64,000 nucleotides of DNA from an uncultured Acidobacteriota bacterium (GTDB taxonomy: Bacteria; Acidobacteriota; Terriglobia; UBA7540), in the NCBI GenBank assembly GCA_963804995.1, contig CAWDSK010000006.1, forward strand, positions 704,001-768,000, written 5' to 3'. Under the pieces are notes generated by a model. That model was not told where the DNA came from and did not search any database. It saw only the letters and a program-made list of their open reading frames with translations. Shown here one piece after another: positions 4,116-18,919 of this stretch. Position 1 is the stretch's first letter. Every line of letters begins with the position of its first letter. Made by a program: the position numbers and the translations under genes.

Positions 4116-4156
4116 GGGATATCGCAGACCCTAAAGTGCACGGGTCTGCGCCAGCC
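4116..4156 (+). repeat. REP palindrome, family R1 (cognate to the RAYT at 18276-18827), uninterrupted copy
   Basis: gggatatcgcagaccctaaagtgcacgggtctgcgccagcc; 37/41 identical to 18879-18919; stem cgcagaccc/gggtctgcg. Confidence 0.8.
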
Positions 4157-13728: not shown

Positions 13729-15743
13729 CCTGCCTTTCGCACTTCCACCCGCTACCGGGCTGATTTTGGCAGCTTGCGGTGCACAAGGTCTTTGCCTTCA
13801 ATGGGCGCGGGTTGAAGAGTGCTTGTAGGCCCGACCTACCCTCTTTTCTGGGGCGCGAAGGTCTGGCATTCTGGGGCGTGCACCTGAAGATTCATCGACG
13901 CAAAAAGGACGGCAAGGAACATCGTTATTTCAGCATCGTCGAGAGTCGGCGCGTGTCGCGCTCGAAGGTCGTGCATCGGACGGTGCTGTATCTGGGCGAA
14001 ATCAACGACAGCCAACAATCCGCGTGGCGCAAGACGCTGGAGGTTTTTGACGAGGACCGTCGCGTCCTCGCGTCCCTGAGCCTCTTCCCGGAGGACCGCG
14101 AACTTCCTGCGGATGCTGTGGACGGCGTACAAGTGAAGTTGAGTGAAATGCGCGTTGAGCGGCCGCGCACCTTCGGTGGCTGTTGGTTGGGCTGCGAGCT
14201 GTGGCGCCAGTTGAAGCTGGACGAGTTCTGGCAGGCGAGGTTGCCGGAAGGGCGCGAGGGAGTTCCGTGGGAGAAGGTGCTACGGCTGCTGGTGGTGAAC
14301 CGGTTGATCGAGCCGGGCAGCGAATTCCGTGTGCATCGGCACTGGTTCGATCAGACCGCCATGGCCGAGTTGCTGGCAGTGAACTTCGCGGTGGCCGAGA
14401 AGGACCGGCTCTATCGTTGTCTGGATCGAATACTGGCGCACAAGGCGGAGTTGTTCCAGCACCTGCGGCTGCGGTGGCAAGACCTCTTTGCGGCGCGCTT
14501 TGATCTGCTCCTCTACGATCTCACCAGCACCTATGTGGAAGGAGAGGCGGAAGCGATTCCCAAAGCCCGCCACGGTTACAGCCGGGACGGGCGGTTCGAC
14601 TGTCGGCAGGTGGTGATCGCCCTGGTGCTGACGCCGGAAGGTTTCCCGCTGGCCTACGAAGTGATGGAGGGGAATACTTCCGACCGGAACAGCTTGCGCG
14701 GTTTTCTGGACAAGATCGAGAGCGTGTACGGCAAGGCACGGCGGGTGTGGATGATGGATCGGGGAGTTCCCAGTGAAGAACTGCTGGCGGAGATGCGCAC
14801 CCCGGGGCGGGAGATGTTTTACCTGGTGGGGACGCCACGGGGCAAGATCCGGCAGTACGAAGCGAAGTGGACGGAACTGCCGTGGCGGAAGGTGCGCGAG
14901 TCGGTAGAGGTGAAACTGTTCGCGGAGGAAGGCGAGTTGTATGTGCTGGCGAAGAGCGCAGGCCGCCAGGCGAAAGAGATGGCCATCCGTCGACGCAAGC
15001 TGGCACGGCTGTTGTGGAGGCTGCGGGCCTTGCGGCGCGTGTGTCCGACGCGTGATGCGTTGCTGATGAAGATCGGAGCAGCCAAGAGTGAAGCCGGACG
15101 GGCCTTCGGTTTCGTGAAGATCAGCGTGCCCAAGGCCCAGGAAGAAGTGACTCGCCAGACCTTCCAGTTCCGGCTCGAGCGCAGCAAGTTGGAGGAAGCG
15201 GAGCGGCGCGATGGACATTATCTGTTGCGCACCAATCTGACGGGGGAAAATCCCGAGGTGTTGTGGGACCGCTACATGCAACTGGCGCAGATCGAAGCGG
15301 CCTTTAAGTGTTTGAAGAGTGAGCTGGGAATTCGGCCGATTTATCATCAAATAGAACATCGCGTCGAGGCCCACATCCTCATTGCCTTTCTGGCGTACGG
15401 CTTGTGGGTGACGCTGAAACAGCGTCTGCAGGCCCACGCTCCGGGCCTGACGCCGAAAGCGGTGCTGGAGAAGCTGGCGGGCATGCAGATGCTCGATGTG
15501 TCTTTCCCGACCACGGATGGGCGCCGATTAGTGATGCCCCGCTACACCGAGCCGACACCCGAACAAAAGCTCCTGTTGCACGAACTGCAGCTCGTGCTCC
15601 CCACTCAGCCACCGCCCAGGATCACGGTCCAGCCGGAAATCTTTCCTGCTGGAATGCTGCGTTTGTAGGCCAGACCTTGGCAATGCCTGTACTGAAAAGA
15701 AGCGAGTTAACCCAACTCAACACCCTGAAGTGCGAAAGTTCGG
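13729..15743 (+). mobile_element. IS1634-family insertion sequence, 2015 bp
   Basis: 17-bp imperfect TIRs cctgcctttcgcacttc (13729-13745) and gaagtgcgaaagttcgg (15727-15743); CTAA direct repeats at 13725-13728 and 15744-15747. Confidence 0.88.
13878..15668 (+). CDS. IS1634-family DDE transposase
   Basis: Probable GTG start, MHLKIHRRKKDGKEHRYFSIVESRR; LLYDLTSTYVEG, HGYSRDGR, WMMDRG, QIEAAFKCLKSELGIRPIYHQ. Confidence 0.92.
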   Translation: MHLKIHRRKKDGKEHRYFSIVESRRVSRSKVVHRTVLYLGEINDSQQSAWRKTLEVFDEDRRVLASLSLFPEDRELPADAVDGVQVKLSEMRVERPRTFGGCWLGCELWRQLKLDEFWQARLPEGREGVPWEKVLRLLVVNRLIEPGSEFRVHRHWFDQTAMAELLAVNFAVAEKDRLYRCLDRILAHKAELFQHLRLRWQDLFAARFDLLLYDLTSTYVEGEAEAIPKARHGYSRDGRFDCRQVVIALVLTPEGFPLAYEVMEGNTSDRNSLRGFLDKIESVYGKARRVWMMDRGVPSEELLAEMRTPGREMFYLVGTPRGKIRQYEAKWTELPWRKVRESVEVKLFAEEGELYVLAKSAGRQAKEMAIRRRKLARLLWRLRALRRVCPTRDALLMKIGAAKSEAGRAFGFVKISVPKAQEEVTRQTFQFRLERSKLEEAERRDGHYLLRTNLTGENPEVLWDRYMQLAQIEAAFKCLKSELGIRPIYHQIEHRVEAHILIAFLAYGLWVTLKQRLQAHAPGLTPKAVLEKLAGMQMLDVSFPTTDGRRLVMPRYTEPTPEQKLLLHELQLVLPTQPPPRITVQPEIFPAGMLRL

Positions 15744-16021
15744 CTAATGACTTAAGTAATCCCCTTCGTGCGGGTGTGCTTCCTCTTACCCGCCTTCCAG
15801 TGACCCACTACTCCACTCCCTGAACTGATGGGCTCCCGAGAGGCCCGGCACCCTAACCCCGGGATGAAGCTTTCAATTGATTTGTCGCCCGCTCCGACGG
15901 AGGAGTGCGTCCATGAGCAAACGACAACGGGTGTGCGTCTGCCCTCCCTGATTTTGCGAGTTTCCTGCCGCCAGCCTTATCCTGGCGGATCGCTACGTTC
16001 TTGTGTGTTAACCGACCACCA

Positions 16022-16063
16022 AATTATGAGCGGTGTTTACAACACTATTGAGGGAGTTGTCAA
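16022..16063 (-). promoter_or_regulatory. Possible sigma70 promoter with LacI-like operator for the TonB receptor
   Basis: Minus-strand TTGACA (16063-16058) with only a weak -10; overlapping aattatgagcggtgtttacaa resembles lac-type operators. Confidence 0.3.
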
Positions 16064-16241
16064 GAGTTTTTGTGGATCGTTTTTGTGAATCGCCTTTTTG
16101 AGTGGCTATGATAGCGCCAGTGGTGGCCCACTTGGCGTTTTGCGCTTTGAGTCTTAGCTTTTTTATGCCTCTTTGCTCCGCTACTTGCTCCTCATTTTGT
16201 TCCTGGGTGACCCCCTAACCTGCTGACCCCTGTACTTGGGA

Positions 16242-16292
16242 GTCTGCGATGTCCTGAAGGGACAGGTAAGAGCCAGCGGGTCACCCCAGCCG
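16242..16292. repeat. 51-bp perfect direct repeat, copy 1 (REP arm, spacer and last codons of RAYT)
   Basis: gtctgcgatgtcctgaagggacaggtaagagccagcgggtcaccccagccg, identical to 18237-18287. Confidence 0.92.
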
Positions 16293-16304
16293 CAAAGGCT
16301 GGCG

Positions 16305-18217
16305 GTTGCGGTAGGGATACCGGTTACCCGGTACCCCCCGCACGGATCCGTACGTGCGCTGGTTAGCGCATACGGCTCTTATCTCGGATGTGTGGCGGCG
16401 AACCGTTGGGATGGCCAAGGATGCACAACGTGCGGAGCAGGCAACCAGCAGGCCGCAAGCTTCCCCAGTCGGTCCCAGTTGAGGCGGTGGCGTTGACTGC
16501 GTTGACGCAGTTGCGTTCGCCACAGTCGGGTCAACCGTTCCCGAAAGATTCGCAGGCGGTCGAGGTTTCCCGGTACCGCGTGATAGTTGAAGTAGCCTTG
16601 CACGACCGACCGGAGCCATTTACCCGTATCCGCGATGGGATCGTGCCGACGCTGCCGGAGTTGTTGCTTGAGTTCCTGCAACTTCCCCCGCAGGCGCTTG
16701 CTGATCGTCTTCCGCTTCACGGTAAATTGCCCCCTCCGGTTCTTCCCGCTGATATGCGTGAAGCCCAGAAAGTCGAACGTCTCCGGCTTACCTTCTCCTC
16801 TCCGTTTCCGGTAAAGTTCGGCAAACGGCCCGAACTCAATCCGGCGCGTTTTGTCAGGATGCAGTTCCAATCCAAACTTCCCCACCCGCTCCCGGAAATC
16901 CTCCAGAAAGCGGTCGGCTTCCGTCTGCGATTGGAATCCAAGGACCGTATCGTCGGCATACCGCACCACGACCACGTCTCCCCGGGCGTGCTTCTTGCGC
17001 CACGCCTGCACCCACAGGTCAAAGACGTAGTGCAGATAGATATTCGCCAGCAGGGGCGAGACCACCGCCCCTTGTGGCGTACCCATCTCCGTCTCCGACC
17101 ATTCGCCTTCCTCCCTCACCCCGGCTTTCAGCCATTTCTGGATGAGCCGGAGAATCCGGGGGTCGGCGACGCGATGCTGCACGAACTTGAGCATCCATTC
17201 GTGGGATATCGAATCGAAAAATCCACGAATGTCCGCGTCAAGAACGTAGTTCACGTGCTTCACCGTGAGCGCGTACGAGAGCGCGTCCAGCGCTTGATGC
17301 TGGCTGCATCCCGGTCGAAAGCCATACGAGAAGCCCAGAAAGTCTTCCTCGTAAATCGCATTGAGGATGGTGACCACGGCCTGTTGGACGATCTTGTCCT
17401 CCAGTGCCGCAACCCCCAACGGACGTTGCCGCCCGTCGCCTTTCGGGATATACGCCCTTCGCGAGGGCTTCGCTCGGAATGCTCCACGGTGGACCCGGCT
17501 GTGCAGATCGACGAGTCGACCTTCCAGCCCGCTTTCATACTCCTGCCACGTCATGCCGTCTACTCCCGGTGCAGCTTTTCGCTTCAAGGCGTAAAAGCTT
17601 TCCCGCAGCAGATCGACCGTTAAGTGGTGGAGCAAGGCCGTGAACTTCATCTCCCTGTGTTCCTTCGCGGCTTTCCGCACACCCGCGAGTCCCTGGGACA
17701 CGCGTGCCCCGCTCTGTGTCGGGTGCGTGTTAGGCCAACGGGTGTTCTCCTTGATCAGCGGCCTTCCCTCCTCATTCTCCGCCAACGGCTTCCCGTCTTT
17801 GTTCAAATGATTCATCGGTACTGTTCCGCTGTCCGACTCCTCGAGAGCGTGCAGGCGGGCTGTACGGCCATCGCCTTTTCCCGCCGTCCGGCCACGATCT
17901 ACGGCGGCCGGCGCCTCCGAGGTCTCCCGGTTCTCGTGCAGAAAGTGTCTAGGCGTGTCTGGGGTCTACGACTACGCAGGACTGTGCCGGAACTCGCGTT
18001 GGCGTCCCGGCCTCATGTTGCCTTCCGTTTAGTCTGAAAACGTCGGCGTCCTGATTGGACATTTTCGAAGCTCAATACCCAGCCCACCTATTCCCCTGTT
18101 TACGCTTCACCGTGCGCCTCACGACGCCCAGCGCAAAACTCGGGGCCGAGTGGATCGCTACTCCTTCCTCGTGAGAAATTTTCATTCTCTGCTTTCTGCC
18201 GGTTTATCCCGGCGCAC
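16305..18217 (-). mobile_element. Group II intron, 1913 nt, full length, no endonuclease domain (probably bacterial class E)
   Basis: 5' end GUGCG at 18217; domain V gagccguaugcgcuaaccagcgcacguacggauccgugcgggggg and domain VI ending ...cccuaccgcAAC at 16305; RT ORF inside; removing it restores an R1 REP. Confidence 0.92.
16379..17815 (-). CDS. ltrA: Group II intron reverse transcriptase/maturase
   Basis: AAPGVDG, RPLGVAALEDKIVQ, SYGFRPG, LDADIRGFFD, GTPQGAVVSPLLANIYLH, YADD, FDFLGF, X domain GYFNYHAVPGN; no HNH tail. Confidence 0.95.
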   Translation of the reverse strand: MNHLNKDGKPLAENEEGRPLIKENTRWPNTHPTQSGARVSQGLAGVRKAAKEHREMKFTALLHHLTVDLLRESFYALKRKAAPGVDGMTWQEYESGLEGRLVDLHSRVHRGAFRAKPSRRAYIPKGDGRQRPLGVAALEDKIVQQAVVTILNAIYEEDFLGFSYGFRPGCSQHQALDALSYALTVKHVNYVLDADIRGFFDSISHEWMLKFVQHRVADPRILRLIQKWLKAGVREEGEWSETEMGTPQGAVVSPLLANIYLHYVFDLWVQAWRKKHARGDVVVVRYADDTVLGFQSQTEADRFLEDFRERVGKFGLELHPDKTRRIEFGPFAELYRKRRGEGKPETFDFLGFTHISGKNRRGQFTVKRKTISKRLRGKLQELKQQLRQRRHDPIADTGKWLRSVVQGYFNYHAVPGNLDRLRIFRERLTRLWRTQLRQRSQRHRLNWDRLGKLAACWLPAPHVVHPWPSQRFAATHPR

Positions 18218-18236
18218 CAGACCCCCGTACTTTGGG

Positions 18237-18287
18237 GTCTGCGATGTCCTGAAGGGACAGGTAAGAGCCAGCGGGTCACCCCAGCCG
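18237..18287. repeat. 51-bp perfect direct repeat, copy 2
   Basis: Identical to 16242-16292; overlaps the RAYT stop at 18276-18278. Confidence 0.92.
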
Positions 18288-18827
18288 ATCCATACGCAGG
18301 ATCGACGCATCCTGCAAGAAGTAAAACCTCCAACTCGACCACGGCCAATCCCCCGGCGAACTAACCAGCCCGCGCTTCACCGGGTTGTTATGCATGTAGT
18401 TTAATTTCTCCTGCCGTTTCTCATCGCTGCAAATCTCGAATGGGTAGAATCGGCGCTGCCAGAGGCGGCAGTGCGACTCGTCATGGACCGTGGGTGGCAG
18501 CCGCAGGCGCGTCTGCATCTTCCGGCACCAGGGATACTGCGGGTTCTCCTGAAGTGTTTTGAGGATGCGCGTGGCCGTTTGCTCCTTCAGCCCCTTCAGG
18601 ATCACAGGAGTAGTTTCGGCGGGCTGCGGCAGGAGAAGCAAATGGAAGTGATCGGGCATCAGTACCCAACCGAGGAGCAGGAATTTAAACTCTTGCCTCA
18701 CCTCGTCGAGCCTTTGGACAAAATAGCGGCGAAAGCGGTCAGAAAGGAAGAGGGGCGCGCGCCGATAGGTGCTGGCGGTGATGAATTGGAGGTGGCCCGG
18801 GGTGTAAGTGCGCTCGTAGAATGGCAT
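18276..18827 (-). CDS. REP-associated tyrosine transposase (RAYT / TnpA-REP, HUH Y1 family)
   Basis: 183 aa from ATG 18827; FITASTYRR, WVLMPDHFHLL (HUH), LWQRRFY, LNYMHNNPVKRGL, DWPWSS; flanked by inverted REP palindromes. Confidence 0.9.
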   Translation of the reverse strand: MPFYERTYTPGHLQFITASTYRRAPLFLSDRFRRYFVQRLDEVRQEFKFLLLGWVLMPDHFHLLLLPQPAETTPVILKGLKEQTATRILKTLQENPQYPWCRKMQTRLRLPPTVHDESHCRLWQRRFYPFEICSDEKRQEKLNYMHNNPVKRGLVSSPGDWPWSSWRFYFLQDASILRMDRLG

Positions 18828-18878
18828 TCTGCCGGAAAGTATACTCGTGCTAGTCCCTTGCTGGAAGAGTGCCCCTTT

Positions 18879-18919
18879 GGGACATCGCAGACCCCAAAGT
18901 GCGAGGGTCTGCGCCAGCC
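18879..18919 (+). repeat. REP palindrome, family R1, upstream of RAYT
   Basis: gggacatcgcagaccccaaagtgcgagggtctgcgccagcc; inverted relative to the intron-split copy (16297-16304 plus 18218-18250). Confidence 0.85.

Follow-up and report, generated by a model that had tools for sequence, protein, structure and literature searches.

Group II introns of class E, a class that Toro et al. 2002 (Gene) reportedly defined, are the nearest described relatives of the element considered here, a complete group II intron lodged in a repetitive extragenic palindrome (REP) beside a gene for a REP-associated tyrosine transposase (RAYT), within a 64,000-nucleotide stretch of DNA ('the window') from an uncultured Acidobacteriota bacterium of peat/soil. 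Described members of the class, S.me.I4 of plasmid pRmeGR4b and Cl.be.I2, have in common with it a reverse transcriptase (RT)/maturase devoid of an endonuclease domain, and an exon-binding site 1 (EBS1) carried in the same hairpin loop; with S.me.I4 (PMC5894124) the resemblance extends to 57% RT identity and to the same model for domain I, RF02005, and the ribozyme is small and IIB-like, as PMC3753933 describes for IIE and IIF introns. Class E relatives on plasmids (S. meliloti pMl2, Cupriavidus, Acidithiobacillus, Microvirga and P. putida plasmids) occupy ordinary, unique, non-hairpin sites that match their EBS1, with a 6-8 bp EBS2 pairing in three of four plasmid introns, whereas the lineage in the window occupies a dispersed hairpin repeat, in about 40 copies and with no EBS2 pairing. 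We read the element, with a probability that we would put at roughly 0.85, as an active or very recently active class E (IIE) intron whose homing site would be the REP hairpin.

Other described systems share parts of this behaviour. Class C introns (such as B.h.I1 and S.ma.I2, which land behind terminator stem-loops or within attC) likewise lack an endonuclease, pair with their exons over a short stretch, take a DNA stem-loop as target, and use neutral multicopy sites to reach high copy numbers (PMC4424553, PMC1702495); they belong to a different RT and RNA class, their intron-binding site 1 (IBS1) lies downstream of the stem rather than inside its 3' arm, and their target is a terminator or attC and not a RAYT-associated REP. 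The class D introns RmInt1 and RmInt2 of S. meliloti are also endonuclease-less, dependent on the replication fork and present in many copies per genome, and they home into a multicopy mobile element, ISRm2011-2 (PMC5894124, PMC1802570); their RTs are 33-35% identical to that of the window and they match RF01999, and their target is a gene-sized insertion sequence (IS) read by EBS1 and EBS2, whereas here it is a palindrome of 30-40 nt. Several IS elements (ISPpu9, ISPpu10, ISPa11, ISPsy8 and IS1397) provide the precedent of a second mobile element that inserts specifically in REPs (PMC1525189), though as protein-guided DNA transposons, in contrast to the RNA loop that acts as guide in the present case. 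A table in the same paper gives a group II intron of P. putida KT2440 as REP-associated in 2 of 9 copies and several IS elements as REP-associated in 100% (PMC1525189). According to a review from 2015, bacterial group II introns have three target specificities, namely homing sites, terminators and attC (PMC4424553); to these would be added a dispersed REP hairpin, in a class whose homing is otherwise of the ordinary site-specific kind. No published REP-homing group II intron was found in a full-text literature search, outside which lie supplements and the Zimmerly intron database.

Copies of the intron and the sites they fill

The original prediction, drawn from the letters of the window, held that an intron had homed into the REP of a RAYT locus with its EBS1 complementary to the REP arm, and its local claims all hold. 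Removal of the intron in silico rebuilds a 41-nt REP, which folds as DNA into a 10-bp stem (-12.7 kcal/mol) and matches both the inverted copy upstream of the RAYT (38/41) and a third, more distant inverted copy (35/41); the intron does lie on the RAYT strand, with the RAYT stop codon 58 nt from its 5' end; and the reported lack of an endonuclease domain is borne out, the open reading frame (ORF) matching only RVT_1 in Pfam and TIGR04416 (coordinates in Table 1). The RAYT flanked by inverted REPs (38/41), together with REPs dispersed in high copy number, identifies the locus as a REP-RAYT system.

The whole host genome (7.55 Mb in nine contigs, C1 and onwards below) was searched by blastn with the intron, yielding 40 hits: 38 full-length copies at 99.5-100% identity and two that are cut by contig ends. 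The full-length copies share the same GUGCG/AC ends, differ on average by 3.4 nt in pairwise comparison, retain an intact ORF in all but one case (37/38), and carry an identical EBS1 hairpin (38/38). A 5' flank is visible for 37 of them, the remaining copy having just 3 nt before its contig ends, and all of these 37 flanks agree on where the intron has gone in, namely 2 bp inside the base of the stem of a REP-type hairpin, CGCAGACC-loop-GGTCTG↓CGC (the arrow marking the insertion point). Exon position +1 is C in 38/38 copies, and the 3' exon begins CGCTAC in 23, CGCCAG in 13, and CGCCAA or CGCCAT in 2; where the 5' exon is in full view, it ends in GGTCTG in 32 copies, GGTCCG in four and AGTCTG in one. 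The loops and outer flanks of filled sites vary as they do among empty REPs, from which we conclude that the intron entered pre-existing, diverse REPs.

This copy set also bears on the broader proposal, that the intron uses a RAYT-amplified REP as a multicopy target. The other 37 copies are not scattered over unrelated sites with only GGTCTG in common; each visible flank is a REP hairpin, from one of two RAYT-associated families, and copy set and flanks together support the proposal. With the same kind of site around all 38 full-length copies, the association goes beyond chance. It does need refinement, in that the target is two REP families and not solely the type found beside the window RAYT. 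The conserved GTAG head beside the hairpin is present in the CGCTAC family, as GTAGCG when the other strand is read, and the CGCCAG family, which is the one beside the window RAYT, has CTGGCG instead. A second, distant RAYT (C5:58419) is flanked by REP arrays of the CGCTAC family, and the adjacent REP holds an intron (copy C5:56440). The arrays near this second RAYT (L017 3985-4620, on C5 of the host genome, G000) resemble bacterial interspersed mosaic elements (BIMEs) or REP doublets forming hairpins (REPINs), with a period of about 165 nt, in which the REP that the intron targets alternates with GTAG-headed, GCGGTCC-type hairpins in inverted orientation.

For a census of sites, the 38 introns were deleted in silico and the intron-less genome was scanned for hairpins, giving 279 forward-oriented hairpin sites. 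On this basis the occupied fraction is 32/144 for GGTCTG↓CGC hairpins, as against 3/114 for GGTCCG↓CGC hairpins (Fisher p = 1.9e-6) and 1/20 for AGTCTG↓CGC hairpins; the low occupancy of the GGTCCG type fits with the A-C mismatch that it would form with EBS1. The opposite face of the same palindromes also offers GGTCTG↓CG, and there no site is filled (102 + 109 sites with ↓CGG and 31 with ↓CGA), such that something at position +3 or beyond, or else loop polarity, must matter. Sites with GGTCTGCGC outside hairpins are empty throughout the genome (0/135), and of the 103 GGTCTGCGCTAC sites in the genome 95 are inside hairpins. A 50-nt sequence with the linear intron motif, ending …gtcaaggtctg↓cgccatctgg, recurs ten times (e.g. 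at C1:511471 and C2:157418 in intron-deleted coordinates) and is never occupied; it presumably belongs to some other repeat or IS.

A further regularity concerns the strand, and refines the original prediction: whether a REP is used depends on how its strand is oriented with respect to replication. Taking the G-rich strand of contigs C3-C6 as reference, 22/43 GGTCTG↓CGC hairpins are filled on that strand and 1/65 on the other (p = 3.8e-10), with no strand bias among the REPs themselves; on the same G-rich strand, outside hairpins, none of 45 GGTCTGCGC sites and none of 12 GGTCTGCGCYA sites is filled. The effect is at its plainest on C6, where the forward CTG-type sites are filled in 15 of 22 cases on the minus strand and in none of 32 on the plus strand, and C3 and C5 behave alike. 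Over the whole set the intron sense strand is the locally G-rich strand for 32/38 copies, and all 15 introns of C6 are co-oriented with the genome's only 16S rRNA gene, with the GC skew and with a slight excess of long ORFs (53% on the minus strand). These markers, weak but concordant, suggest that the strand holding the intron has leading-strand polarity, in other words that the intron enters the lagging-strand template. If so, this strand-specific near-saturation (about half of the cognate sites on one strand and almost none on the other) would amount to a natural record of fork-dependent retrohoming.

The guide and the class of the intron

The hexamer CAGACU, which the original prediction put forward as EBS1, occupies a domain I hairpin loop in the Rfam alignment and in an independent minimum-free-energy (MFE) fold of intron nt 1-265 alike, so that a fold check which might have displaced it leaves it in place; the hairpin consists of a CGUUU/AAACG stem with a 7-nt terminal loop, and the hexamer pairs with the GGUCUG end of the 5' exon, as proposed, through five Watson-Crick pairs and one G-U. 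Relatives of the intron occur in 18 of 24 genomes of the same genus, and alignment of their 5' junctions and domain I regions allowed loop/exon pairing to be scored in 16 lineages. The loop changes together with the end of the exon (TGTCAG/CTGACA, GAATTT/AAATTC, TGGCTA/TAGCCA, CATAC/GTATG), with 6/6 positions pairing in 9/16 lineages and at least five in 14/16, as against 3.5% and 25%, respectively, of 230 non-cognate control pairings. Judged by this natural covariation with the 5' exon, the CAGACU loop is EBS1. For EBS3 and delta-delta' contacts, the relatives with both junctions available offer little variation at position +1.

The closest relatives are likewise found in REPs, in three of the sister genomes (G002, G005 and G006). 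In G002, an intron of 92% identity with EBS1 CAGACU sits in a REP that ends AGTCTG; in G005, an intron of 90% identity with EBS1 CGGACU is present in six copies, all in GCGGACC-type REPs; and G006 holds a derivative without an ORF (L057), whose EBS1 is CGGACU and whose REP ends GGTCCG. Free REPs of the CAGACC type, counted against those of the CGGACC type, number 103/103 in the host genome, 13/44 in G005, 47/152 in G006 and 4/21 in G002; hence the guide matches the commoner REP variant in G005 and G006, where the CGGACC type outnumbers the CAGACC type, as compared across four related genomes. From one sister species to another, the guide sequence of the intron changes along with the REP variants. 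At five of the G005 copies (L065, L066, L068, L071 and L072), the exon reads GGGCCG or GGCCCG where EBS1 expects GGTCCG, a change that also breaks the REP stem. Derivatives without an ORF, in which about nt 1-545 are joined to nt 1810-1913, occur in G006 (L057), G007:C249, G013:C11:265591-266242 and G018 (L058), and several of them start with GAAAGCG instead of GUGCG. A further lineage, with EBS1 AACUUC and 84-86% identity, is found in three genomes (L032 in G021, L035 in G017 and L043 in G003), where each copy follows a similar motif (…ccacgat.t.tatgaaa…g.gagtt↓), which in L032 recurs in similar form immediately behind the intron; a different dispersed repeat may be serving as the target here.

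The lineage appears, from sequence comparison, to have given up the EBS2 pairing kept by its relatives, a point that refines the original prediction. Among the relatives scanned, the single-stranded stretch at the EBS2 position pairs with exon positions -7 to -14 over 1 to 8 bp, with 6-8 bp in L091, L093 and L059 (plasmid) and in L054 (same genus) and 4 bp in the plasmid relative L092; in the REP-homing lineage (the window intron, L039 and L057) just 2-3 bp can be formed. EBS2 is described as dispensable for splicing of Cl.be.I2 (PMC3753933). With an EBS2 stretch that pairs over 2-3 bp, and with REP loops that vary, recognition would rest on six EBS1 pairs, position +1 and a determinant that is present only in intact REPs. 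The EBS2-position sequence AUGUCC is complementary to GGACAT (18251-18256), which lies directly 5' of the hairpin, 21 nt upstream of IBS1. We discarded GGACAT as an EBS2 partner, as it is present in the REP family beside the window RAYT and absent from the more heavily used CGCTAC family.

To assign a class we used as calibration the introns of S. meliloti GR4, compared by RT identity and by Rfam model, this strain being described as having class D introns (RmInt1 and RmInt2), a class C intron on pSymB along with a disrupted intron of class E, S.me.I4, on pRmeGR4b (PMC5894124). On pRmeGR4b, a frameshifted RT is 57% identical to that of the window, and its locus matches RF02005 at 145 bits; a second RT on the same plasmid is 35% identical, and its locus matches RF01999. 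On pSymB, three copies with 33% RT identity match RF01999, and an intron with 34% identity, sitting right after a hairpin and a T-run, matches RF02001 and RF01998. The best plasmid homologues of the RT are proteobacterial (58-61% identity, about 474 aa), and all five of the plasmid relatives that were fetched match RF02005 (137-191 bits). Because its RT is 57% identical to that of S.me.I4 and its ribozyme falls under the same model, the intron is, by RT similarity and ribozyme model, class E and neither C nor D. Class D was rejected on RT identities of 33-35%, and on the match of RmInt-type introns to RF01999 rather than RF02005. The remark in the original prediction that the intron does not look like class C is thereby confirmed, since it groups with S.me.I4, and the class D and C introns of the same strain, at 33-35%, fall under other Rfam models. 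A comparison with the PDB does not discriminate between classes, IIB and IIC RTs scoring alike (about 1e-39 to 7e-41). The loop of domain V (DV) counts 4 nt (AACC) with a U-A pair closing it, and 6 nt should this pair open, according to the fold and the RF00029 alignment. PMC3753933 gives as IIE/IIF features a 5-nt DV loop and an alpha' in the terminal loop of DId3; to the former the AACC loop of the window intron shows no obvious fit. The host genome contains at least 11 further RF02005-type domain I matches above the cut-off, which represent different lineages of introns within this RNA class and include C6:842412, C1:440866 and nine sites at 57-73 bits.

A retrohoming model and its rivals

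We favour, as the account of these observations, ordinary RNA-guided class E retrohoming that would be aimed at a RAYT-amplified hairpin repeat, with a striking strand rule and signs of hairpin dependence. In the model that we propose, the excised intron RNA together with its RT/maturase would reverse-splice into the strand of the REP with CTAC, or inverse REP (iREP), orientation, between GGTCTG and CGC, the site being chosen through six EBS1-IBS1 pairs with the 3' arm, position +1, and some further determinant offered only by intact hairpins. Insertion would succeed where a replication fork presents the target strand as its lagging-strand template, a requirement that we propose because the protein has no endonuclease, and a nascent DNA end would then prime cDNA synthesis. 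Introns without an endonuclease are described as priming from nascent strands at replication forks, and a strand rule of this kind is the behaviour expected of an intron that borrows such a strand (PMC4424553). The REPs, which are intergenic, numerous and renewed by RAYTs, would constitute a large, harmless and self-replenishing target set, and on this account could have allowed the burst to about 40 copies. We also considered a RAYT nick as the primer. The E. coli enzyme TnpAREP is described as cutting to either side of the palindrome, in the iREP (CTAC) strand (PMC3333891); the strand that it cuts is the strand that the intron enters, hence no bottom-strand primer would be produced, and we rejected this candidate.

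The most serious competitor is pure linear homing, in which a short motif (about -6 to +5, with perhaps a few more bases read via the protein) is all that counts, the REPs are hit as its main carriers, and the hairpin is irrelevant. That proteobacterial class E relatives use ordinary non-hairpin sites by EBS1 and EBS2 pairing speaks for it, as does the need for the REP stem to melt before EBS1 can pair; moreover, with 95 of 103 GGTCTGCGCTAC sites in hairpins, motif and REP are nearly the same set. Set against this, on the permissive strand the non-hairpin sites stay empty (0/45 and 0/12) where hairpins are filled in 22/43 cases, REPs whose 5' arm is damaged are among the sites left empty, the two REP families have little in common outside their arms and CGCYA, and the lineage is one without an EBS2 pairing to positions -7 to -14. 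On balance we regard linear homing as doubtful, if worth keeping in mind. We would place at a similarly tentative level a more ambitious version of our own model, in which a class E intron has converged on the strategy of class C, dropping EBS2 and requiring, besides six EBS1 pairs, that the lagging-strand template offer an intact REP hairpin, so as to become a hyperparasite of the REP/RAYT system whose EBS1 tracks the REP variant that the RAYT of each host has amplified. Were this convergence real, homing sites, terminators and attC would be joined by a fourth target specificity occurring in nature.

That the intron actually is of class C, and inserts at DNA stem-loops in the manner of that class, seems to us the least probable of the explanations considered, for all that the small ribozyme (about 480 nt outside the ORF), the missing endonuclease, the choice of a hairpin as target, the large number of copies and the lack of a usable EBS2 pairing would suit it. 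The RT has 57% identity to S.me.I4, a class E intron that matches RF02005, and 34% to the terminator-associated intron of pSymB, which matches RF02001/RF01998 and not RF02005; furthermore, the 34-nt DV carries an AGC triad, and the insertion is inside the 3' arm and not downstream of the stem. Nearly as improbable is a spread without retrohoming, whereby the intron entered a single REP and the unit of REP plus intron was then copied by the RAYT, or by recombination between REPs. The copy in the window and that at C5:56440 do adjoin RAYT genes, and RAYT-type enzymes, too, act on the single-stranded lagging-strand template: this is reported for Y1 transposases of the IS200/IS605 type, and a similar route has been proposed for BIMEs cut by TnpAREP (PMC3333891). 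Such a passenger, however, would hardly show identical DNA that stops exactly at GUGCG and AC, flanking REPs of two families with many loops that mirror those of empty REPs, an exon end that tracks EBS1 (GGTCTG 32/144 as against GGTCCG 3/114 hairpins filled), or an EBS1 that changes with the REP variant in G005.

Several observations count against class E retrohoming into REP hairpins as we have set it out. The partner of EBS1 is the 3' arm of a 10-bp G+C-rich stem, and a formed hairpin would hide IBS1; the stem must therefore open for EBS1 to pair, and a positive role for the hairpin structure is not obvious. The 0/12 result for GGTCTGCGCYA could reflect extended sequence contacts instead of a hairpin. 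The guide rule has exceptions, in that four copies sit in GGTCCG sites despite the A-C mismatch with EBS1, and in G005 a mismatch at exon position -4 affects five of six copies. The direction of replication is read from weak markers (GC skew that does not exceed 3%, ORFs divided 47/53% between the strands, and a single rRNA operon), and the RF00029 match of the intron, at 39.2 bits, lies 0.8 under the gathering score of 40. Lastly, among contigs of three peat/sediment DNA runs and one RNA run placed on 15900-18700, none bridges an intron-less REP or joins the flanks, and no spliced junction is seen; these contigs extend over the intron and stop at its boundaries, where several different flanks occur, and 14 of the 17 RNA contigs are only 90-95% alike.

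If the retrohoming model holds, two selfish systems would be linked, RAYT-driven REPs serving as landing sites for a retroelement, with RAYT activity feeding the intron. It is also conceivable that an RNA-guided element with hundreds of neutral intergenic landing sites could be put to use as a tool for multicopy integration.

Features of the window

The features are collected in Table 1. The RF00029 model (DV and domain VI) aligns end to end and finishes exactly at the 3' end of the intron, the secondary structure of this part coming from a fold of the last 80 nt. In the intron-encoded protein, RVT_1 is matched at 2.3e-39 and TIGR04416 at 342.7 bits (cut-off 300) over residues 70-438, with YADD at residue 285; an endonuclease (HNH) domain has no match in Pfam or NCBIfam within the 478-aa ORF, which has no room for one either.

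Table 1. Coordinates of the intron, the split REP and neighbouring REP-RAYT features (positions in the window)
Feature	Position	Strand	Details
Complete group II intron	16305..18217	-	1913 nt; 5' GUGCG at 18217, 3' ...CGCAAC at 16305
Domain I core, RF02005 (group-II-D1D4-6)	17962..18182	-	Rfam 173 bits, gathering score 49, full model 1-225
EBS1 CAGACU	18031..18036	-	7-nt terminal loop; Rfam alignment and MFE fold
Variable single-stranded stretch (…AAAAUGUCCAAU…), EBS2 position in relatives	18056..18068 (approximate)	-	Upstream of EBS1 hairpin
Intron-encoded RT/maturase	16379..17815	-	478 aa, YADD; RVT_1 (Pfam), TIGR04416
Domain V	16345..16378	-	34 nt, AGC triad, AACC loop; RF00029 alignment and fold
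Domain VI	16307..16342	-	Bulged A at 16312, 8 nt from 3' end; fold and RF00029 alignment
Split REP, 5'-exon part (5' arm, loop, most of 3' arm)	18218..18250	-	IBS1 GGTCTG = 18218-18223
Split REP, 3'-exon part (CGCCAGCC)	16297..16304	-	putative IBS3 = C at 16304
RAYT gene	18276..18842	-	NF047646 REP_Tyr_transpos 116.9 bits (cut-off 80); Y1_Tnp 2.3e-9
Inverted REP upstream of RAYT, empty	18879..18919	+	38/41 identity to restored REP
Third REP, same family, empty	4116..4156	+	35/41 identity to restored REP, inverted
Tandem second copy of REP and 38-nt linker	16220..16296 (compare 18219-18290)	-	The two copies bracket the intron; second REP degenerate, GGTCAG not GGTCTG, empty

About 600 nt from the 3' exon of the intron lies a 629-aa ORF for a DDE transposase (13779-15668, plus strand; DDE_Tnp_1 1.8e-11), which resembles an IS element unrelated to the intron. 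Peat and freshwater-sediment metagenome runs (X1-X7) contain 23-61% of the sequence words sampled from the window.

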